A stretch of DNA of 64,000 nucleotides from Escherichia coli. GTDB taxonomy: Bacteria; Pseudomonadota; Gammaproteobacteria; Enterobacterales; Enterobacteriaceae. The position numbers and the translations under genes were made by a program. Shown here one piece after another: positions 1 through 62,290 of this stretch. The DNA is taken from the NCBI RefSeq assembly GCF_044647545.1, contig NZ_CP172818.1; one strand, 5' to 3'. Each line of letters opens with the position of its first letter. The first letter of the stretch is position 1. Below the pieces are notes generated by a model that saw nothing but the letters and a program-made list of their open reading frames with translations, made no database searches and was not told the DNA's origin.

Positions 1-60
1 TGCGATCTTTTCCTGTGTGGTACGCCGTCTGCGTTTCTCCGGCCCTAAGACATCAATCAT
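1..60 (-). CDS. insC: IS2 transposase OrfA (InsC), N-terminal 20 codons only; partial at window edge
   Basis: Minus-strand ATG at 58..60 reads MIDVLGPEKRRRRTTQEKIA to the window edge. Confidence 0.7.
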   Translation of the reverse strand, partial: MIDVLGPEKRRRRTTQEKIA

Positions 61-151
61 CTGTTCTCCAATGACTAGTCTAAAAACTAGTATTAAGACT
101 ATCACTTATTTAAGTGATATTGGTTGTCTGGAGATTCAGGGGGCCAGTCTA
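1..151 (-). mobile_element. IS2 left end (partial; element continues upstream of window), terminal inverted repeat ending at 151
   Basis: Reverse complement of 61..151 matches the IS2 left end as I recall it (TAGACTGGCCCCCTGAATCTCCAGACAACC...), followed by the insC start. Confidence 0.85.
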
Positions 152-206
152 AACCCCAGAACTTACTTATGCTGATTCCGGTGCGAAAATTGTTAATAAA
201 GGTACT
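152..206 (+). pseudogene. ydbA: 55-bp ydbA autotransporter fragment trapped between IS2 and IS30
   Basis: Reads in frame (…[15 protein letters not shown]) into the ydbA frame that resumes after IS30 once one copy of the CT duplication is removed. Confidence 0.6.
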
Positions 207-1427
207 TGTAGATTCAATTGGTCAACGCAACAGTTATGTGAAAACATGGGGTTGCGGAGGTTTTTTGAATGAGACGAACATTTACAGCAGAGGAAAAAGC
301 CTCTGTTTTTGAACTATGGAAGAACGGAACAGGCTTCAGTGAAATAGCGAATATCCTGGGTTCAAAACCCGGAACGATCTTCACTATGTTAAGGGATACT
401 GGCGGCATAAAACCCCATGAGCGTAAGCGGGCTGTAGCTCACCTGACACTGTCTGAGCGCGAGGAGATACGAGCTGGTTTGTCAGCCAAAATGAGCATTC
501 GTGCGATAGCTACTGCGCTGAATCGCAGTCCTTCGACGATCTCACGTGAAGTTCAGCGTAATCGGGGCAGACGCTATTACAAAGCTGTTGATGCTAATAA
601 CCGAGCCAACAGAATGGCGAAAAGGCCAAAACCGTGCTTACTGGATCAAAATTTACCATTGCGAAAGCTTGTTCTGGAAAAGCTGGAGATGAAATGGTCT
701 CCAGAGCAAATATCAGGATGGTTAAGGCGAACAAAACCACGTCAAAAAACGCTGCGAATATCACCTGAGACAATTTATAAAACGCTGTACTTTCGTAGCC
801 GTGAAGCGCTACACCACCTGAATATACAGCATCTGCGACGGTCGCATAGCCTTCGCCATGGCAGGCGTCATACCCGCAAAGGCGAAAGAGGTACGATTAA
901 CATAGTGAACGGAACACCAATTCACGAACGTTCCCGAAATATCGATAACAGACGCTCTCTAGGGCATTGGGAGGGCGATTTAGTCTCAGGTACAAAAAAC
1001 TCTCATATAGCCACACTTGTAGACCGAAAATCACGTTATACGATCATCCTTAGACTCAGGGGCAAAGATTCTGTCTCAGTAAATCAGGCTCTTACCGACA
1101 AATTCCTGAGTTTACCGTCAGAACTCAGAAAATCACTGACATGGGACAGAGGAATGGAACTGGCCAGACATCTAGAATTTACTGTCAGCACCGGCGTTAA
1201 AGTTTACTTCTGCGATCCTCAGAGTCCTTGGCAGCGGGGAACAAATGAGAACACAAATGGGCTAATTCGGCAGTACTTTCCTAAAAAGACATGTCTTGCC
1301 CAATATACTCAACATGAACTAGATCTGGTTGCTGCTCAGCTAAACAACAGACCGAGAAAGACACTGAAGTTCAAAACACCGAAAGAGATAATTGAAAGGG
1401 GTGTTGCATTGACAGATTGAATCTACA
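207..1427 (+). mobile_element. IS30, complete 1221-bp copy
   Basis: Imperfect 26-bp terminal inverted repeats (TGTAGATTCAATTGGTCAACGCAACA at 207..232, about 23 of 26 matching at 1402..1427), 2-bp CT target duplication at 205..206 and 1428..1429, one long transposase ORF. Confidence 0.9.
269..1420 (+). CDS. insI: IS30 transposase InsI (383 aa, DDE family)
   Basis: 383-aa ORF filling IS30; N-terminal helix-turn-helix and C-terminal DDE region recognised as IS30 transposase. Confidence 0.9.
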   Translation: MRRTFTAEEKASVFELWKNGTGFSEIANILGSKPGTIFTMLRDTGGIKPHERKRAVAHLTLSEREEIRAGLSAKMSIRAIATALNRSPSTISREVQRNRGRRYYKAVDANNRANRMAKRPKPCLLDQNLPLRKLVLEKLEMKWSPEQISGWLRRTKPRQKTLRISPETIYKTLYFRSREALHHLNIQHLRRSHSLRHGRRHTRKGERGTINIVNGTPIHERSRNIDNRRSLGHWEGDLVSGTKNSHIATLVDRKSRYTIILRLRGKDSVSVNQALTDKFLSLPSELRKSLTWDRGMELARHLEFTVSTGVKVYFCDPQSPWQRGTNENTNGLIRQYFPKKTCLAQYTQHELDLVAAQLNNRPRKTLKFKTPKEIIERGVALTD

Positions 1428-4400
1428 CTGTTGAAATTCAGAATTTAGGTTTTGCTTTTGTTACTGGTGAAAATACAACAGGTATAAATAGTGGCACGAT
1501 CTCGTTATTACAAAATGGTAAAGATCCGGCACCGTCTCCCATTGTTTTACTGGCTACTAACGGAGGGAGCGCCACTAATGCAGGTACGATCACAGGTAAA
1601 GTGACGGAACAACATAGCGTATTTAACAAGTATTCAACGGGCACATCGAATTCATTTATTTTTAATAACGATGTCAGTAGCATAACAGGGTTAGTCGCTC
1701 AATCGAATAGCACAATTATCAATACTGACAGCGGCATCATTGATTTGTATGGTCGTGGTAGTGTCGGCATGCTTGCTATAGCAGATTCAACAGCAGAAAA
1801 TCAGGGTAAAATTACACTGGATTCTATGTGGGTAGATGCAAATGACACTACCGCAATGCGAGATATAGCTAGCAACAGCGCCATTGACTTCGGTACAGGT
1901 GTGGGAGTTGGTACTGATAGTTATAGTGGTGCAGGGAAAAATGCAACAGCAATTAACCAATTGGGCGGTGTTATAACTATTTATAACGCCGGCGCAGGTA
2001 TGGCGGCCTATGGCGCCAGCAATACAGTTATTAACCAGGGGACGATTAACCTCGAAAAAAATGGTAATTATGACGATAGTCTGGCAGCAAATACTCTGGT
2101 AGGGATGGCTGTTTATGAGCATGGTACTGCTATCAACGACCAGACGGGTGTTATCAATATCAATGTTGGTACTGGTCAGGCGTTTTATAACGATGGCACA
2201 GGAACAATTGTTAACTATGGTACAATCTGCACTTTCGGCGTGTGCCAATCGGGGAATGAGTACAATAATACAGATGATTTCACCTCACTGATCTATACCG
2301 GTGGCGATACGATTACACGAAGCGGAGAAACTGTAACGCTAAATAAATCTGCTGCTGTGACTGATAAGCTGGCTGGGAATGTTGTTAATAGCGGAACGCT
2401 TTCCGGTGATCAAATTACGGTATCAAGCGGTCTTCTGGAAAATACCAGCGGTGGCATCATCAATAACTTAGTAAAACTTGACAAGGGTGCCGTCATTAAA
2501 AATGCCGGGGTGATGACGAATAACGTCGATGTTAGCGGTGGAATCCTCAATAATGCCGGAGAAATGACTGCGCAAATTACCATGAATGCTGGTGCTGATA
2601 GTTCGTTAGTGAACAACACCGGAACCATCAATAAAATCGTGCAGAACGCGGGGGTATTCAATAATAGTGGCAGTGTAACAGGGCGGATGATGTCGGCTGG
2701 CGGGGTCTTTAATAATCAAACTGACGGGGCGATTATGAGAGGTGCTGCGCTGACAGGTACTGCAGTGGCAAATAACGAAGGAACCTGGAACCTCGGAAGT
2801 AGTAGTGAGGGTAACAACACCGGGATGCTGGAAGTTAATAATAATTCAGCTTTCAATAACCGCGGCGAGTTTATTCTTGATAACGACAAGAATGCTGTGC
2901 ACATCAACCAGTCCGGTACGCTTTATAATACCGGTCACATGAACATCAGTAATTCTTCCCACAACGGAGCCGTTAATATGTGGGGCGGAAATGGTCGTTT
3001 TATCAATGACGGAACGATTGATGTTTCTGCGAAGTCACTGGTAGTCAGCGCTAATAATGCCGGCGATCAGAATGCCTTCTTCTGGAACCAGGATAACGGG
3101 GTCATCAACTTCGATCACGACAGCGCCAGTGCCGTGAAAGTCACCCACAGCAACTTTATTGCCCAGAATGACGGCATCATGAACATCAGCGGCACCGGTG
3201 CTGTGGCTATGGAAGGTGATAAGAACGCGCAGCTGGTTAACAATGGCACCATCAACCTCGGTACCGCAGGCACTACTGACACGGGTATGATCGGTATGCA
3301 ACTCGATGCCAACGCCACGGCGGATGCGGTAATCGAAAACAACGGCACCATCAATATCTTCGCCAATGACTCGTTTGCATTTAGCGTACTGGGTACAGTA
3401 GGTCATGTGGTTAACAACGGCACGGTGGTGATTGCCGATGGGGTTACGGGTTCTGGACTGATCAAGCAGGGCGACAGCATCAATGTTGAAGGTATGAACG
3501 GTAACAACGGTAATAGCAGCGAAGTGCATTATGGCGACTATACGTTGCCGGATGTGCCGAAGCCCAATACGGTTAGTGTAACGTCGGGAAGTGATGAGGC
3601 TGGTGGCAGCATGAACAACCTCAACGGCTATGTCGTCGGTACCAACGTTAACGGCAGCGCCGGGAAGCTGAAGGTTAACAATGCCAGCATGAACGGCGTG
3701 GAGATTAACACGGGCTTTACCGCTGGTACGGCAGACACCACTGTGAGTTTTGATAACGTAGTGGAAGGTAGCAACCTGACCGACGCTGACGCCATCACCT
3801 CAACGTCCGTGGTATGGACTGCCAAAGGCAGCACCGATGCCAGCGGTAACGTTGACGTCACCATGAGCAAAAATGCCTACACCGATGTGGCAACAGATGC
3901 CTCGGTGAATGACATCGCGAAAGCACTGGATGCGGGTTACACCAACAACGAACTGTTTACCAGCCTGAACGTCGGCACGACTGCTGAACTGAACAGTGCT
4001 CTGAAACAGGTCAGCGGTAGCCAGGCGACCACGGTATTCCGCGAAGCGCGCGTGTTAAGCAACCGCTTTAGTATGCTGGCAGATGCCGCGCCGAAAGTGG
4101 GTAACGGTCTGGCGTTCAACGTTGTCGCGAAAGGCGATCCGCGTGCCGAGTTAGGTAATAATACCGAATACGACATGCTGGCATTGCGTAAAACTATCGA
4201 CCTGAGCGAAAGCCAGACGATGAGTCTGGAGTACGGTATCGCTCGTCTCGATGGTGATGGTGCGCAGAAAGCGGGTGATAATGGCGTTACAGGCGGTTAT
4301 AGCCAGTTTTTTGGCCTGAAACATCAGATGTCGTTCGATAACGGCATGAACTGGAATAACGCCTTGCGTTACGACGTTCACAACCTTGACAGCAGCCGCT

Positions 4401-4924
4401 CGATTGCATTTGGCAACACGAACAAAACGGCTGATACCGACGTGAAACAGCAGTACCTGGAGTTCCGCAGCGAAGGGGCGAAGACTTTCGAACCGAGCGA
4501 AGGACTGAAGGTTACGCCATATGCGGGTGTAAAACTGCGTCACACACTGGAAGGTGGCTATCAGGAGCGCAATGCCGGAGACTTTAACCTGAATATGAAC
4601 AGTGGCAGCGAAACGGCGGTGGACAGCATCGTCGGGCTGAAACTGGACTACGCAGGTAAAGACGGCTGGAGCGCTAGCGCTACGCTGGAAGGCGGGCCGA
4701 ACCTGAGCTACGCGAAGAGCCAGCGTACGGCAAGCCTGGCAGGCGCAGGCAGTCAGCACTTTAACGTCGATGACGGTCAGAAGGGCGGCGGCATCAATAG
4801 CCTGACAAGCGTCGGCGTGAAGTACAGCAGCAAAGAAAGTTCGCTGAATCTGGATGCGTACAACTGGAAAGAGGATGGCATCAGCGATAAAGGCGTGATG
4901 CTGAACTTCAAGAAAACGTTCTAA
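1428..4924 (+). pseudogene. ydbA: ydbA C-terminal portion: autotransporter passenger repeats plus beta-barrel translocator; gene disrupted by IS2 and IS30
   Basis: Open frame runs from the IS30 junction with no start of its own; Gly/Asn/Thr-rich repeats and a C-terminal barrel ending in F; annotated ORF 1601..4924 is the internal Met-start part. Confidence 0.8.
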
Positions 4925-33346: not shown

Positions 33347-34015
33347 ATGCGTACCACATCAATTGCGAAAGTTGCAGCTTTATGCGGCTTGTTGGCTCTG
33401 TCTGGTTGTGCCTCTAAAATCACCCAGCCAGATAAATATTCTGGTTTTTTAAACAATTACTCTGATTTAAAAGAAACAAATTCTGCAACGGGTAAACCTG
33501 TTTTACGTTGGGTAGACCCGAGTTTTGATCAAAGCAAATATGACAGCATCGTCTGGAACCCAATCACTTATTATCCGGTACCGAAACCTTCAACCCAGGT
33601 AGGGCAGAAAGTTCTGGATAAAATTTTGAACTATACCAACACCGAAATGAAAGAAGCGATAGCGCAGCGTAAACCACTGGTTACCACCGCTGGGCCGCGT
33701 AGTCTGATTTTCCGTGGGGCCATTACCGGTGTAGATACCAGCAAAGAAGGGCTGCAATTCTATGAAGTGGTTCCTGTTGCATTAGTGGTTGCGGGGACGC
33801 AAATGGCTACAGGCCACCGTACCATGGATACTCGCTTGTATTTTGAAGGTGAGCTGATTGATGCAGCGACTAATAAACCGGTTATCAAAGTCGTTCGTCA
33901 GGGCGAAGGTAAAGACCTGAATAACGAAAGTACGCCAATGGCTTTCGAAAATATTAAACAAGTTATTGATGACATGGCGACCGATGCCACCATGTTTGAC
34001 GTTAACAAAAAGTAG
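33347..34015 (+). CDS. ydcL: Lipoprotein YdcL
   Basis: 222-aa ORF with lipoprotein signal and lipobox (…LALSGC). Confidence 0.8.
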   Translation: MRTTSIAKVAALCGLLALSGCASKITQPDKYSGFLNNYSDLKETNSATGKPVLRWVDPSFDQSKYDSIVWNPITYYPVPKPSTQVGQKVLDKILNYTNTEMKEAIAQRKPLVTTAGPRSLIFRGAITGVDTSKEGLQFYEVVPVALVVAGTQMATGHRTMDTRLYFEGELIDAATNKPVIKVVRQGEGKDLNNESTPMAFENIKQVIDDMATDATMFDVNKK

Positions 34016-34023
34016 TTCCAGAC

Positions 34024-34048
34024 GCGCCATCGTTAGATGGCGCTTTTT
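34024..34048 (+). terminator. Rho-independent terminator after ydcL
   Basis: Stem GCGCCATC / GATGGCGC followed by T5. Confidence 0.65.
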
Positions 34049-34269
34049 ATTAACTGTAAAGGTTTCTCTTCTTTTTTCTTCAAATGCCAAAACCCTTATA
34101 ATCTCTCAATACTGTCGCTCCAAACCTACTCTTCTTTTCGCGTCCCAGTTATAGTTATTAACAATCTCTTCCCATCCATTCAACACACTCAAACGCAATA
34201 CATTAAGTATTTCCCTCATCAAAAATCTGATCGTATGTGACAAAGACCGTGAACACACAGGAAAACACA

Positions 34270-35450
34270 TGCCTTCCACGCCGATACGTTTCTTCACAGA
34301 CCAAAGTCATTTGCCTGTGAAACACTACAGCATTTAAATCCATTAGCCCGTGTCAAAGAGCGTGAAATGGCGCTTCCGGCGCATGTCGTTTCGTTTCAAT
34401 CTCTCTGGCACGTCAGAAGAGAATCATGAGCCGTAATAAATACATCCCTTACGGGAAAATGCTTCCTCTGTTGAGTGAAAAACGCCACGAAACCAATGCT
34501 AAAGATCGCCCTCACAGCCATTCAACACACTGAAAGACCTTGAGCGCTTAAAAAACTTCTCCAGAAGCCTGCTTTTCCCCGATCAAAAAGCGGGGACAGA
34601 AGATGCATTCGCTACCCGCAGGGCGTTAAGCTCGACAGGAAAACAGCCGTATTTTTCGCCGAAACTTGGCTGGATGCGCTACCGGAATAGCCGTCAGGTC
34701 ACGGGTGTGTGAAAAATGTCACTGTCAGCCAGTCCTGCGTAAGGTACATCAGTATCAGACTGAAAATGAAGTATCAACTCCGTTCACCCTTCAGCATCAA
34801 TGGTCGGCTGGAGCGCGGGCTAAACTCGCCACGCTGTCAGAGCAAGCTTTGACCTGAAACAGTTTTCAGAAAAACCAGAAGAAGCTGGCGAGACTTCAGC
34901 GACAGTTAAGCCGCAAGGTCAAATTCAGCAATAACTGGCAGAAGCAGAAACGCAAAATACAGCGACTGCATCCTGTACGCAAATATCCGCAGGGACTACC
35001 TTCACAAAGTCACAACGACCGTCAGCAAAAACCACGCAATGATAGTCATTGAGGATTTGAAGGTCAGCAACATGTCAAAGTCAGCAGCGGGTACGGTCAG
35101 CCAGCCGGGGCGCAATGTCCGGGCAAAATCAGGTTTAAACCGTTCGATACTGGATCAGGGCTGGTATGAAATGCGCCGCCAGCTTGAGTACAAGCACCTG
35201 GCGTGGCGGTCAGGTGCTTGCTGCCGCCAGCGTACACAAGCCAGCGTTGCGCGTGCTGTGGTCATACAGCGAAAGAAAATCGCCTGTCACAAAGTAAATT
35301 CAGATGCCAGCATGTGGATATACAGCGAACGCCGATGAAATGCCTCGTAACATTTTAGCGGCGGGGCACGCCGTTCTTGCCTGTGGAGAGATGGTGCATC
35401 AGCCGCTCGTTGAAGCAGGAACCCCCCGAAATGATTTAGCGACAGCCTGA
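34270..35450 (+). pseudogene. insQ: Decayed IS200/IS605-family (IS609-like) tnpB / insQ-type gene
   Basis: TnpB-like peptide segments (…KLGWMRYRNSRQVTGV…, …KKLARLQRQLSRKVKFSNNWQKQKRKIQRLH…, …MIVIEDLKVSNMSK…) lie in different frames with in-frame stops; no ORF over 99 aa on either strand. Confidence 0.65.
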
Positions 35451-35487
35451 ACGTAGCAGGGATCCACGTCCTTCAGGGCGTGAGGAT

Positions 35488-36663
35488 TCAATATCGGTTT
35501 CTGTCAGCGATTAAATTCAACACCACGTAACAAACGCCTCCGGCAATTAATCCCCAAAACGCAGAACCAATCCCGGCCAGCGTCAATCCACTTGCCGTTA
35601 CCAGAAATGCCACCACCGCCGCGTCGCGCTCACGCTCATTATGCAGCGCCTGATACAAACTGCCGCCAATGGTACTCAACAGCGCCAGACCTGCCAGCAT
35701 CTGGATCCAACTTACGGGCAGGGCAGCCATCATCCCGGTAATGGCACTACCAAACAGACCTGCGAGCAAATAGAAAATGCCTGCAACGGCAGCTGCCAGC
35801 CAACGTTGATCTTTATCCGGATGCGCTTCCGGGCTTTGGCAAATAGCCGCGGTGATTGCCGCAATACCGACGGAATAAACGCCGAAAGGGGAAAAAACCA
35901 GTGCCAGCAATCCAGTAAATACAATTAATGGCGAAACAGGAGCCGAATATCCGGCTGCTTTCATTGCTGCGATACCCGGTGCGTTTTGCGATGCCATCGT
36001 CACCAGAAAAAGGGGGAGTGCAACGCTCAGGCTGTGAGCAAACGAAAAATCAGGGCTAATATAAGTGGGGAGAACGGGTTTAAAGACAACATCAGTTGTG
36101 ACAACGTCACCTTGCGCGATAACGATCACGCCCCCAATAATCATCGCGGCAATTACCGCATAGCGCGGCGCAACGGCCCTGGTTGCCAGCCATACCAGCA
36201 ACATACTGCCACACAACGTAAATTGACCATCCAGGCTCGCAAACGCCTGTAAACCAAAGCGTAATAAAATCCCGGCAAGCATTGCCGCCGCAAGCGAGTG
36301 CGGAATAATGCGCATCAGACGAGCAAAGAGTCCCGTTATGCCGCAGAGGACTATTAACGCGTTGGTGACAATAAAAACGCCGATGGTTTCGTTAAGTGTT
36401 AGTCCCTGCAATCCGGTGACCAACAAAGCCGCGCCAGGCGTTGACCATGCGGTGAGAACAGGTACGCGATACCATAATGTCAGAGCCAGCGTACTGACGC
36501 CCATTGCCAGCCCCAGCGCCGTCATCCAGCCAGAGATTTGTGCAGTGGTGGCTCCGGCGACAATCGCTGCTTGCCAGATTATTGCCGCTGAACTGGCGTA
36601 GCCAATTAATACCGCCAGAAACCCCGCCAGTAGCGTGGGCGGAGGAATAGAAAACAGACGCAT
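35488..36663 (-). CDS. ydcO: BenE-family (benzoate-type) inner-membrane transporter
   Basis: 391 aa from MRLFSIPPPTLLAGF…; highly hydrophobic multi-pass protein. Confidence 0.8.
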   Translation of the reverse strand: MRLFSIPPPTLLAGFLAVLIGYASSAAIIWQAAIVAGATTAQISGWMTALGLAMGVSTLALTLWYRVPVLTAWSTPGAALLVTGLQGLTLNETIGVFIVTNALIVLCGITGLFARLMRIIPHSLAAAMLAGILLRFGLQAFASLDGQFTLCGSMLLVWLATRAVAPRYAVIAAMIIGGVIVIAQGDVVTTDVVFKPVLPTYISPDFSFAHSLSVALPLFLVTMASQNAPGIAAMKAAGYSAPVSPLIVFTGLLALVFSPFGVYSVGIAAITAAICQSPEAHPDKDQRWLAAAVAGIFYLLAGLFGSAITGMMAALPVSWIQMLAGLALLSTIGGSLYQALHNERERDAAVVAFLVTASGLTLAGIGSAFWGLIAGGVCYVVLNLIADRNRY

Positions 36664-36754
36664 AGTCACCTCGTGCGTTATAGCATACAGGCACCGTAGC
36701 ATTTGTCCGTTATAACGCACAAGTGATAAACTTACGTTTTGCCGGAGGAGTCGC

Positions 36755-37291
36755 ATGGAAAATCTCGCTCGCTTTTTATCCACCACACTTAAACAACTAC
36801 GTCAGCAGCGCGGCTGGAGTCTTTCGCGACTGGCAGAAGCGACGGGCGTTTCTAAAGCGATGTTAGGGCAGATTGAGCGTAATGAATCCAGCCCGACGGT
36901 CGCGACATTATGGAAAATAGCCACCGGGTTGAACGTGCCATTTTCGACATTTATTTCTCCGCCGCAGTCCGCAACGCCTTCAGTTTATGATCCACAACAA
37001 CAGGCGATGGTGATCACTTCGCTGTTTCCTTATGATCCACAACTCTGCTTTGAACACTTCTCGATTCAGATGGCACCCGGTGCAATAAGCGAATCGACGC
37101 CCCATGAGAAGGGAGTAATCGAACATGTTGTCGTCATTGATGGGCAACTTGATCTGTGCGTTGATGGTGAATGGCAGAGCCTTAATTGTGGGGAAGGCGC
37201 TCGATTTGCTGCAGACGTCACGCATGTCTATTGTAATGGTGGGGAGCAAATCGTACATTTTCATTCCCTCATCCATTACCCACGCAGTTAA
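36755..37291 (+). CDS. sutR: XRE-family helix-turn-helix plus cupin-domain transcriptional regulator
   Basis: 178-aa ORF with N-terminal helix-turn-helix (…LSRLAEATGVSKAMLGQIERNES…); divergent from ydcO. Confidence 0.75.
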   Translation: MENLARFLSTTLKQLRQQRGWSLSRLAEATGVSKAMLGQIERNESSPTVATLWKIATGLNVPFSTFISPPQSATPSVYDPQQQAMVITSLFPYDPQLCFEHFSIQMAPGAISESTPHEKGVIEHVVVIDGQLDLCVDGEWQSLNCGEGARFAADVTHVYCNGGEQIVHFHSLIHYPRS

Positions 37292-58474: not shown

Positions 58475-60109
58475 ATGTCGACTCGCTTATCCACCCTCAG
58501 CCATACCAGTGAAGGCCACCGCGTGTCGGTCCACTACGGCTATGACGATAAAGGCCGCCTGACCGGCGAACGCCAGACGGTGGAGAACCCGGAGACGGGG
58601 GAACTGCTGTGGCACCATGAGACCGGACATGCGTACAACGAACAGGGGCTGGCAAACCGCGTCACGCCGGACAGTCTGCCGCCGGTGGAGTGGCTGACCT
58701 ACGGCAGCGGCTATCTTGCGGGCATGAAGCTGGGCGGGACGCCGCTGCTGGAGTTCACGCGCGACCGCCTGCACCGTGAGACGGTGCGCAGCTTCGGCAG
58801 CATGGCAGGCAGTAATGCCGCATATAAACTGACCAGCACATACACCCCCGCAGGCCAGTTACAGAGCCAGCACCTGAACAGCCTGGTGTATGACCGTGAC
58901 TACGGGTGGAATGACAACGGCGACCTGGTGCGCATCAGCGGCCCGCGACAGACGCGGGAATACGGCTACAGCGCCACGGGCAGGCTGGAGAGTGTGCGCA
59001 CCCTCGCACCAGACCTGGACATCCGCATCCCGTATGCCACGGACCCGGCGGGCAACCGGCTGCCGGACCCGGAGCTGCACCCGGACAGTACACTCACAGT
59101 GTGGCCGGATAACCGCATCGCGGAGGATGCGCACTATGTCTACCGCCACGATGAATACGGCAGGCTGACGGAGAAGACGGACCGCATCCCGGCGGGTGTG
59201 ATACGGACGGACGACGAGCGGACCCACCACTACCACTACGACAGCCAGCACCGCCTGGTGTTCTACACGCGGATACAGCATGGCGAGCCACTGGTCGAGA
59301 GCCGCTACCTCTACGACCCGCTGGGACGGCGAATGGCAAAACGGGTCTGGCGGCGGGAGCGTGACCTGACGGGGTGGATGTCGCTGTCGCGTAAACCGGA
59401 GGTGACGTGGTATGGCTGGGACGGAGACAGGCTGACGACGGTGCAGACTGACACCACACGTATCCAGACGGTATACGAGCCGGGAAGCTTCACGCCGCTC
59501 ATCCGGGTCGAGACAGAGAACGGCGAGCGGGAAAAAGCGCAGCGGCGCAGCCTGGCAGAGACGCTCCAGCAGGAAGGGAGTGAGAACGGCCACGGCGTGG
59601 TGTTCCCGGCTGAACTGGTGCGGCTGCTGGACAGGCTGGAGGAAGAAATCCGGGCAGACCGCGTGAGCAGTGAAAGCCGGGCGTGGCTTGCGCAGTGCGG
59701 GCTGACGGTGGAGCAACTGGCCAGACAGGTGGAGCCGGAATACACACCGGCGCGAAAAGTTCATTTTTACCACTGCGACCACCGGGGCCTGCCGCTGGCG
59801 CTCATCAGCGAAGACGGCAATACGGCGTGGCGCGGGGAGTATGATGAATGGGGCAACCAGCTTAATGAGGAGAACCCGCATCACCTGCACCAGCCGTACC
59901 GTCTGCCAGGGCAGCAGTATGATAAGGGAGTCGGGCTGGTACTTATAACCGTCACCGGTACTACGATCCGTTGCAGGGGCGGTATATCACCCGGGACCCG
60001 ATTGGGTTGAGAGGTGGATATGGATATGTATCAGTATCCGTTGAATCCCATACAAGTGATAGACCCAATGGGGTTAGATGCGATTGAGAATATCATAATA
60101 TCAGGCTAA
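58475..60109 (+). pseudogene. rhsE: rhsE remnant: C-terminal part of an Rhs core with a frameshifted tail
   Basis: GC-rich ORF 58475..60010 with YD-repeat content (…[12 protein letters not shown]…[12 protein letters not shown]…); the conserved end (…[17 protein letters not shown]… and DPMGL) continues in the two other frames; no N-terminal half upstream. Confidence 0.8.
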
Positions 60110-61204
60110 TTAATTTATGCCGTATCTGGTGTACCTGGATTGATTGCTGCAAACAGCATTACTAACAGTGCTTACCAGTTCGGTTATGATATGGATGCTA
60201 TTGTTGGCGGAAGCTCATAATGGGGCCGCCGATGCAATGAGACATATCGTCACTTGATGTGTCGAATGACTAAGACATTTGGATCAAACAATAGCTGACG
60301 TGATAGGAAAAATCATGAGGCGGCAGGGATAACAAGGTCAGCCAGCTAAAGAAAAGTAATCATGGATCTAAAAAATAACACTGTCGGTATTGCTTGTGGC
60401 GATTTTTGGCCAAATGTAGCGATGATGTATTGTAAAATATAACACTGGGAAAACTCTTCGGGTTAGATGGTATAAAAGCAGATAACTCCAATAAAAACAA
60501 AGCAAGGGAGTTTCAGACGCTTCAAATTATTAGAGGCAAACTTGTCATTTTTTTTAATTACCCTTTGTTTATTTGTTGTTTACAATCTTCTGGGTTTGAT
60601 AACAATTCAAATTCTTGATATTGTCATTTTATGGACATAAATACCTAAAGAGCGTTGAGATATCTTTCTGAAAAAAATATTATTTATAAAATAATTAATG
60701 ACCAAAAAATTAGTAGAGGGAATGGTCATTTTATAAGTATAATGGTTAATAATTACAGGACGCACTGTGGAGTGGTTGATAAACTTAATTTTTTCAATGA
60801 TATTCTTTATAGCGTGCGATTAAAAAACATTAAAGCAAACTTGCAGAATATGGAGTTCTGCGCTAAAAAATAATGCGTATTTTAGTGATAAAAACAAGAA
60901 GGCTAGTTATAAAATAATTAATTATGGAGAACTATCACGATGTTGATTATTATGATAACAATTTGAAAAATGAAGCTTTTTGACTGGATTGGTAAATGGT
61001 CATAATGAACAACACCAGAAAGTAGAAAAATATAAAATACATACAGAAGATACTAGAAGCAAGGGACGGGCAGGGCAATATTATGAAAATTGTGATGTAA
61101 AATCACGATTTTCATCTTGGCTTGAACGCTAGCAGGCTATTAAAATTTAACCTTTGGATAAATGGAAAAAGATAAAAAAGGACCAAGTGATATTTTAAGT
61201 TTGC

Positions 61205-62290
61205 TTGATTATATTTAGCTATCTCTATATACGACAACAAGGAAGCTTAAACATAAATCTATCCGCTATTTTGTTTCTCACCGTATGTGAGAATTGCGAG
61301 GCCCATGAGTGGCAGGAAATTGAAGATTTTGGACATGAAAGACTTGAATGGCTAAAGAAATATGGTGATTTTGATAATGGGATTGCGGTCGATGACACCA
61401 TTGCACGCGTTGTGAGTAACATTGACAGTTTGGCCTTTGGAAGATGTTTATTGAATGGATGCAGGAGTGCCATGAAATCACTGATGGTGAAATTATAGCA
61501 ATAGATGGAAAGACCATAAGAGGCTCCTTTGATAAGGAAAGAAAAGGAGCAATCCATATGGTGAGTGCATTCTCAACCAAATGGTGTTGTACTCCGGCAG
61601 GCGAAACGGAAGCCAAAAGTAATGAGATTACAGCCATTCCACAGTTGCTTAACCTACTGTATTTAAAGAAAATTTTGATAACCATCGACGCTATGGGCTG
61701 TCAGAAAGATATCGCTTCGAAGATTAAAAGATAAAAAAGCAGATTATCTTCTGGCAGAAAAGGCAATCAGGGGAAATTACATCATGCATTCGAGGAAAAA
61801 TTTCCTGTAAATGTGTTTTCTAATTATAGGCGATTCGTTTAGTACGCAGGAGATAGTCATGGAAGAAAAGAAACACGTTTTCATATTGTAGTAACGTAAC
61901 GCCTGAACTTTTGTGATTTTGAATTCAATGGAAGGGATTAAAAAAGCTTTGTGTAGCATTGTCATTCAGGCAGAAGAAAGAAGATAAATCAGCAGAAGGT
62001 GTAAGCATCCGATACTATATTTCATCAAAGGATATGGATGCTAAAGAATTTGCACATGCTATCAGAGCGCACTGGCTGATCGAGCACAGTCTTCATTGGG
62101 TGTTAGATGTAAAAATGAATGAAGATGCCGCCGGATAAGAAGAGGAAACGCAGCCTAAATAATATCTGGAATAAAGAAGATGGCACTGAATTTATTAAGA
62201 GATTGCAAAGACATTAAGGGTGAAGAGGAAAAGAAAGAAGGCTGCGTTAAACACAGGGAAAGATCATCAGAAGTTCACTTTTTGTACTAA
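61205..62290 (+). pseudogene. yncI: Degenerate H-repeat (ISAs1-family) transposase copy
   Basis: ORFs 61205..61498 and 61444..61734 plus downstream fragments align piecewise to the ydcC protein (…WQEIEDFGHERLEWLKKYGDFDNGI…, …IAIDGKTIRGSFDK…AIHMVSAFS…) with several frameshifts and stops. Confidence 0.65.

Follow-up and report, generated by a model that had tools for sequence, protein, structure and literature searches.

Is the tnpB-like sequence between ydcL and ydcO in an Escherichia coli chromosome (NZ_CP172818.1) an old transposon remnant that has decayed in place, and does it still hold a guide RNA? In the 64,000-nucleotide stretch of DNA that was analyzed, referred to here as the window, ydcL is found at 33347-34015 on the plus strand, ydcO is found at 35488-36786 on the minus strand, and the insert lies between both genes. 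A preliminary description had placed an IS200/IS605-family sequence at 34060-35480. Comparison with K-12 and other strains bears out the presence of such a sequence and sets its limits at 34051-35491, where a 1441-bp IS609-derived insert occupies the same point as IS609 (tnpA' and insQ) in K-12. The locus contains the following features.

34024 to 34043, plus strand: hairpin of the ydcL terminator, GCGCCATCGTTAGATGGCGC, followed by a T run; found by a terminator scan and the same in K-12 and in the empty-site strain.
34046 to 34050, plus strand: TTTAT pentanucleotide directly 5' of the IS609 left end; target site, judging from four IS609 loci, and, from what is known of the family, putative TAM.
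34051 to 35491, plus strand: IS609-derived insert of 1441 bp, every base of which occurs in order within an intact IS609 of 1748 bp (the source element).
34051 to 34310, minus strand: left end and tnpA-derived stretch, in which positions 1-489 of the source have shrunk to 260 nt.
34317 to 35439, plus strand: tnpB (insQ)-derived stretch, with 75 of 1197 bases missing in 65 events and no substitutions.
35380 to 35421, plus strand: conserved core of the presumed guide-RNA (omega/reRNA) scaffold, CCUGUGGAGAG...CUCGUUGAAGCAGGAA, a sub-threshold match to Rfam RAGATH-18.
35461 to 35491, plus strand: right-end subterminal hairpin and cleavage end (...CCACGTCCTTCAGGGCGTG-GAGGAT-TCAA), with two single G deletions.
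35492 to 35511, plus strand: flank that, by the mechanism of the family, would form the guide part of any omegaRNA made from an element here; antisense to the last ydcO codons.
35488 to 36786, minus strand: ydcO ORF; its stop codon (TGA, 35488-35490) is read on the opposite strand from the TCA of the IS end TCAA.

The insert begins after TTTTTAT and ends in ...TCAA/TATCGG, where the slash marks the boundary. Insertion 3' of a fixed short target without target-site duplication, as in IS200/IS605-family elements, is apparent from TTTAT on the left, TCAA on the right, and an empty site that reads TTTTTAT/TATCGG. The junction TTTAT/CCGG... was found at four independent IS609 loci (ydcL-ydcO, yjfZ-ytfB, gltX-yfeD, and yhgE-hslO), the right-side flanks of which are unrelated, and this arrangement fits the insertion of an IS200/IS605-family element 3' of a fixed pentanucleotide. 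The comparison suggests that TTTAT is the 5-nt target and TAM of IS609.

At ydcL-ydcO, IS609 is present in K-12 and in other strains that were compared. In the K-12 element, a minus-strand tnpA pseudogene precedes insQ/tnpB (also ydcM, of the RNA-guided endonuclease InsQ/TnpB family), which lies on the plus strand; the element shares its insertion point, gene order, and ends with the copy in the window. However, the K-12 copy is 1748 bp long with an intact insQ of 402 codons, whereas the window copy is 307 bases short, has no such ORF, and carries the alleles of another IS609 copy. The similarity to tnpB is real, and the underlying element is the already known IS609 with InsQ/TnpB. It carries the gene of a Y1 transposase, tnpA, on one strand and that of an RNA-guided nuclease, tnpB (insQ), on the other, and it inserts 3' of TTTAT.

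All 1441 bases of the insert form an exact subsequence of the 1748-bp IS609 located between yjfZ and ytfB in strain 2014C-4135 (NZ_CP027310: 733,465-735,212), with no base substituted or inserted and 307 missing. The missing bases fall into approximately 140 events, 90 of which are single-base deletions. The yjfZ-ytfB copy, which occurs in ST648-like and other strains, 2014C-4135 among them, contains every base of the window copy in the same order but differs from it in being intact, with no missing bases, and in lying at another chromosomal locus. Even the worst 180 nt, at the left end, fit into the first 388 source bases; none of 2000 shuffled versions of them fitted into fewer than 607, so the similarity is far beyond chance.

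Aligned to the K-12 copy, the insert showed approximately 91% identity, interrupted by numerous small gaps. The K-12 and 2014C-4135 copies differ from each other at 33 sites and by no indels. Twenty-nine of these sites are retained in the window, and all 29 have the non-K-12 (2014C-4135) allele. The K-12 copy was rejected as the source on this ground and because the insert is not a subsequence of it.

The deleted bases comprise 130 G, 79 T, 50 A, and 48 C; past source position 600 they are all G or T save four, each of them C. The loss is also graded along the element, from 77% in the first 100 bp through 5-17% in the middle to 0-4% over the last 650 bp. Four simple accounts of these features were considered and rejected. 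Pure homopolymer contraction is only partly true: shortening of GG to G is favored (19 of 32 GG runs between source positions 400 and 1100), but many isolated G and T bases have been lost, and runs of A and C have been spared. As for errors at Dam or Dcm motifs, a few deletions fall in CCWGG or GATC and most lie elsewhere, as judged by inspection. Reads from an empty site forced onto the left end would resemble the ydcO flank; the longest common subsequence with that flank was 112, compared with a shuffle mean of 111.1. Divergence between K-12 and the paralogue does not produce the gradient either, the 33 differing sites being evenly spread and free of indels.

The left-end subterminal hairpin typical of IS200/IS605 elements, CCCCGTCCTTCAGGGCGGGG, is gone, together with 77% of the first 100 bp; the right-end hairpin is preserved except for one deleted G. 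The preliminary description had reported no tnpA. A tnpA-derived stretch does exist at 34051-34310, in divergent orientation, but it is mangled and contains no ORF for a Y1/HUH transposase, and it is not recognizable by eye because 40-77% of its bases are missing. The intact source gene (positions 1191-1613, minus strand, of the 2014C-4135 locus) scored 145 bits on NF033573 (IS200/IS605 transposase), for which the cutoff is 55.

The tnpA ORF of the yjfZ-ytfB copy (locus positions 999-1613, minus strand) spans the whole Y1 profile, positions 2-126 of 126. It continues past the left end of the element into the flank, giving a 204-aa ORF that PGAP labels "incomplete, missing C-terminus." The gene may be functional despite this label.

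In the tnpB-derived part, likewise, a full-length TnpB with RuvC and zinc-ribbon regions in one frame was absent from the insert; two ORF fragments scored 40.5 and 26 bits on NF040570, where the cutoff is 100 bits, compared with 388.7 bits for the intact 398-aa TnpB of the source. Sixty-four of the 65 deletion events in this part shift the frame. The earlier observation of tnpB pieces in several frames interrupted by stops was accurate, as all three plus-strand frames are broken, with 10-18 stops per frame.

In principle, neutral mutation could have brought an old IS609 to this state where it stands, with tnpA lost, tnpB left behind as a stranded pseudogene, and a guide RNA perhaps surviving in residual form. 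The broken frames of tnpB, the position of the element at the TTTAT site that it shares with K-12 IS609, and the annotation of tnpA as a pseudogene in natural copies at ydcL-ydcO would all fit such a history. Neutral decay, however, yields substitutions and deletions alike, and here 0 substitutions in 1441 aligned bases stand against approximately 140 deletion events. Moreover, the alleles match the paralogue at yjfZ-ytfB and no copy at ydcL-ydcO, and no other genome searched has the same version.

The uniqueness of this version was evident in every collection searched. It was absent from 5426 complete E. coli genomes, in which the best match to the insert was 92.7%. An exact-protein lookup among some 15 billion proteins found none of eight ORF products of the region. 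A 45-nt string across eight of the deletions was likewise absent from genome and metagenome contig collections.

Near-identical strains, furthermore, have no element at the site, so the version cannot be said to be inherited as a pseudogene would be. The flanks of the insert match the ST648-like strain FDAARGOS_497 with 100.000% identity over 35492-58491 and 99.99% identity (2 mismatches) over 14051-34052. In FDAARGOS_497 the gap between ydcL and ydcO is 34 bp, and the site is empty (...GCGCTTTTTAT/TATCGG...). With 2 base differences from empty-site relatives in 43 kb of flank, there was no time for decay in place. The earlier reading of the insert as a decayed and stranded remnant thus gives way before deletions without substitutions, a version found nowhere else, and near-identical relatives that are empty at the site; we give neutral decay next to no credence. 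That description had allowed that its reading would fall if the frameshifts were errors, and this is effectively what the comparison shows.

In three further strains with identical right flanks (ECONIH1, WP5-S18-ESBL-08, and WP4-S18-ESBL-09), a 331-bp test segment from the element matched at one place only, and two 1-bp deletions are the sole difference between that place and the window. In both WP strains, this place adjoins a TetR/AcrR pseudogene, as it does at yjfZ-ytfB of 2014C-4135. The sole IS609 copy of K-12 is the one at ydcL-ydcO.

A near-full-length IS609 is present somewhere in 4854 of the 5426 complete E. coli genomes. About 400 matching E. coli records hit only the 33-bp ydcL terminator stretch; among those listed, H29 and H30 have ydcO directly beneath, as at the empty site. 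Taken together, these counts indicate that the ydcL-ydcO site is polymorphic for the element across the species.

The mixed ancestry of the insert extends to the window as a whole. Two segments outside the locus are specific to K-12.

1 to 4915, no strand assigned: K-12-specific segment with IS30 and ydbA', 100% identical to K-12-type sequence.
58491 to 59750, no strand assigned: junction and core of the truncated rhsE' specific to K-12, 100% K-12.

The first of these segments is absent from the ST648-like strain. Homology to that strain begins at 4916, and the first informative site, 4991, already has the ST648-like allele. At the other end, position 58490 has the ST648-type allele, and from 58491 the sequence is 100% K-12 for 1260 bp, through the truncated rhsE' junction. 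The informative sites nearest to IS609 on either side, 33838 and 35576, have ST648-type alleles. In the shared DNA between 14.5 and 55.5 kb, the SNPs compared, roughly 1000 in number, follow the ST648-like strain, as do the small indels; every large structural feature (IS30/ydbA', IS609, and the truncated rhsE') follows K-12, and the switches between strains occur within 1-212 bp of the structural boundaries. The window lacks the ST648-type vgrG expected after yncH. As a whole, it is a composite, K-12 in structure and ST648-like (phylogroup F type) in its alleles.

We attribute the apparent decayed tnpB to a corrupted copy of IS609 that arose when the sequence was built as a K-12-scaffolded consensus, and not to a real evolutionary remnant, with a probability of roughly 0.8. 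In reference-guided consensus genomes, reference bias keeps segments that only the reference has, and paralogous reads fill repeats that only the reference has. The window resembles such artefacts in all respects of this kind: it retains segments specific to the reference and lacks those specific to the sample, shows the sample's alleles in DNA common to both, and has a reference-only repeat apparently occupied by paralogous reads.

The proposed sequence of events would start from a K-12 scaffold and reads of an ST648-like strain, combined into a reference-guided consensus or pseudo-assembly. The strain would have an empty ydcL/ydcO site and, as in the relatives checked, a single paralogous IS609 copy at yjfZ-ytfB. 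Data from this paralogue would have filled the K-12 IS609 slot at ydcL-ydcO, which would account for the presence of the strain's own IS609 alleles at that locus. About 18% of the bases would then have been lost in a consensus step. We infer both the reference-guided origin and the status of the missing bases as calling errors from the pattern of alleles and gaps. In the sequenced strain, the ydcL-ydcO locus is very probably unoccupied by IS609.

Some features fit this origin poorly. The dropout is G/T-biased, graded, and deletion-only, and in this the window departs from ordinary reference-bias artefacts, since it is not attributable to a specific tool; no standard consensus pipeline known to us predicts a loss that is specific to G and T and graded across some 1100 bp. 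Among the K-12-specific segments, three patterns occur (K-12-identical, deletion-only, and with mixed noise), and no one simple pipeline obviously yields all of them. Recombination tracts that end at heterology boundaries could also mimic some of the junctions.

The last point bears on a genuine recombinant, made in the laboratory or in nature, in which a K-12-like recipient acquired about 53 kb from an ST648-like donor as two tracts halted at heterologies and kept its own IS609. Such an exchange would combine K-12 structure with donor alleles, and large heterologies that block strand exchange could set the tract ends at structural boundaries. A retained IS609 should, however, be of the K-12 type, yet 29 of 29 diagnostic sites are non-K-12. 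Recombination also leaves unexplained the 307 deletions and a noisy region at 59750-62250, and the junction at 58490/58491 disfavors it. We regard this origin as highly improbable.

Another reading is a very recent, real move of the strain's IS609 from yjfZ-ytfB to TTTAT at ydcL/ydcO, with the new copy intact in the cell but badly assembled or polished, either as one member of a two-copy repeat or because it was present in part of the culture. The exact boundaries without target duplication are those of a true insertion, all retained diagnostic alleles match the strain-type copy, the source tnpA ORF spans the Y1 transposase profile in full, and errors consisting of deletions only resemble a consensus problem. 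A move of this kind does not account for the K-12 structure at ydbA'/IS30 and rhsE', the switches at structural boundaries, or the loss of the strain's vgrG, and this allele type was found at ydcL-ydcO in 0 of 5426 complete genomes. We consider recent transposition very unlikely.

The noisy region is a second anomalous stretch, at approximately 59750-62250, which covers the rhsE' tip, ydcD, yncO, and an ISAs1 pseudogene. Among the 5426 genomes, the closest match to it was of K-12 type, at 94.5%. The differences there consist of many mismatches, insertions, and deletions, unlike the deletion-only IS609. The stretch is specific to the reference, K-12, and probably represents a further artefact; the same problem thus affects at least one other part of the window.

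Alteration in silico, with the stretch or the whole window simulated, corrupted, or generated by a model, was also weighed. The two anomalous stretches match nothing in the collections searched, and both the unnatural deletion-only change and the two-strain mosaic would be in keeping with such an origin. Conversely, exact identity over 23 kb to a real non-K-12 lineage, along with the correct paralogue-specific alleles, is more simply obtained from real reads placed on a reference. We therefore hold alteration in silico to be very unlikely.

Were the sequence real DNA, and only then, its deletion-only pattern would be remarkable. A fresh IS609 would then have entered TTTAT in single-stranded form and been copied by a process extremely prone to deletion, in which G and T in the template were passed over more and more often toward the left end, which would amount to a one-step, deletion-only inactivation of a transposon. 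We find this barely credible.

If the insert is an artefact of sequence building, as we favor, its value lies mainly in quality control: an apparent "ancient TnpB pseudogene with orphan guide RNA" is the damaged image of a known intact element. Inferences drawn from the window about pseudogene decay, the distribution of IS609, orphan guide RNAs, or ydcO termination would mislead.

The 3' end of the element had been proposed as the place to look for a guide RNA. The proposal holds as to location, since a search with Rfam covariance models placed a RAGATH-18 match at 35380-35421. Membership in that family is not established: the core is only weakly detectable, with 29.6 bits (E = 0.01), where the gathering score is 44.9. 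Intact copies scored 29.5 and 25.4 bits on RAGATH-18, with the conserved core present and the family threshold not reached. Over their last ~160 nt, scores on two other families were 25.2 for HgcC (threshold, 50) and 18.1 for sot0042 (threshold, 88). The predicted fold of the 3' region had a z-score of -3.06 in the intact copy versus -1.67 in the window version.

RNAs derived from RAGATH-18 are the reRNAs of IS607 TnpBs (PMC11061315), which makes the IS609 3' end the right place to look. The two systems share the TnpB protein family, and the 3' RNA core of IS609 resembles the RAGATH-18 consensus while scoring below threshold. A further likeness may lie in the insertion of IS609 beside a fixed short motif, TTTAT, as a putative TAM. 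They differ in that the RAGATH-18/IS607 reRNA lies outside the coding sequence (PMC11061315), whereas the IS609 core overlaps the 3' end of tnpB.

By analogy, the guide RNA of IS609 would consist of the last 150-250 nt of the element and the adjacent flank, and the guide of an element at ydcL-ydcO would be antisense to the 3' end of ydcO. With TTTAT as TAM, the putative InsQ target would be TATCGGTTTCTGTCAGCGAT. In the literature, nothing specific was found on a guide RNA of IS609 or insQ.

The remnant had also been suggested to supply a terminator for ydcO. The terminator scan revealed none in the right end: a minus-strand terminator-like site was absent from 35487 to about 34980, ~500 nt past the ydcO stop. 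The nearest minus-strand candidates, at 34975-34953 and 34889-34874, are weak matches to the consensus.

The element does affect the end of ydcO itself, as the IS609 insertion point lies inside the stop codon of this gene. With IS609 in place, ydcO ends in ...CGA TAT TGA, with one Tyr added and the TGA supplied by the IS end TCAA; at the empty site it ends in ...CGA TAA. The annotated length of ydcO is 1176 nt in K-12 versus 1173 nt in FDAARGOS_497.
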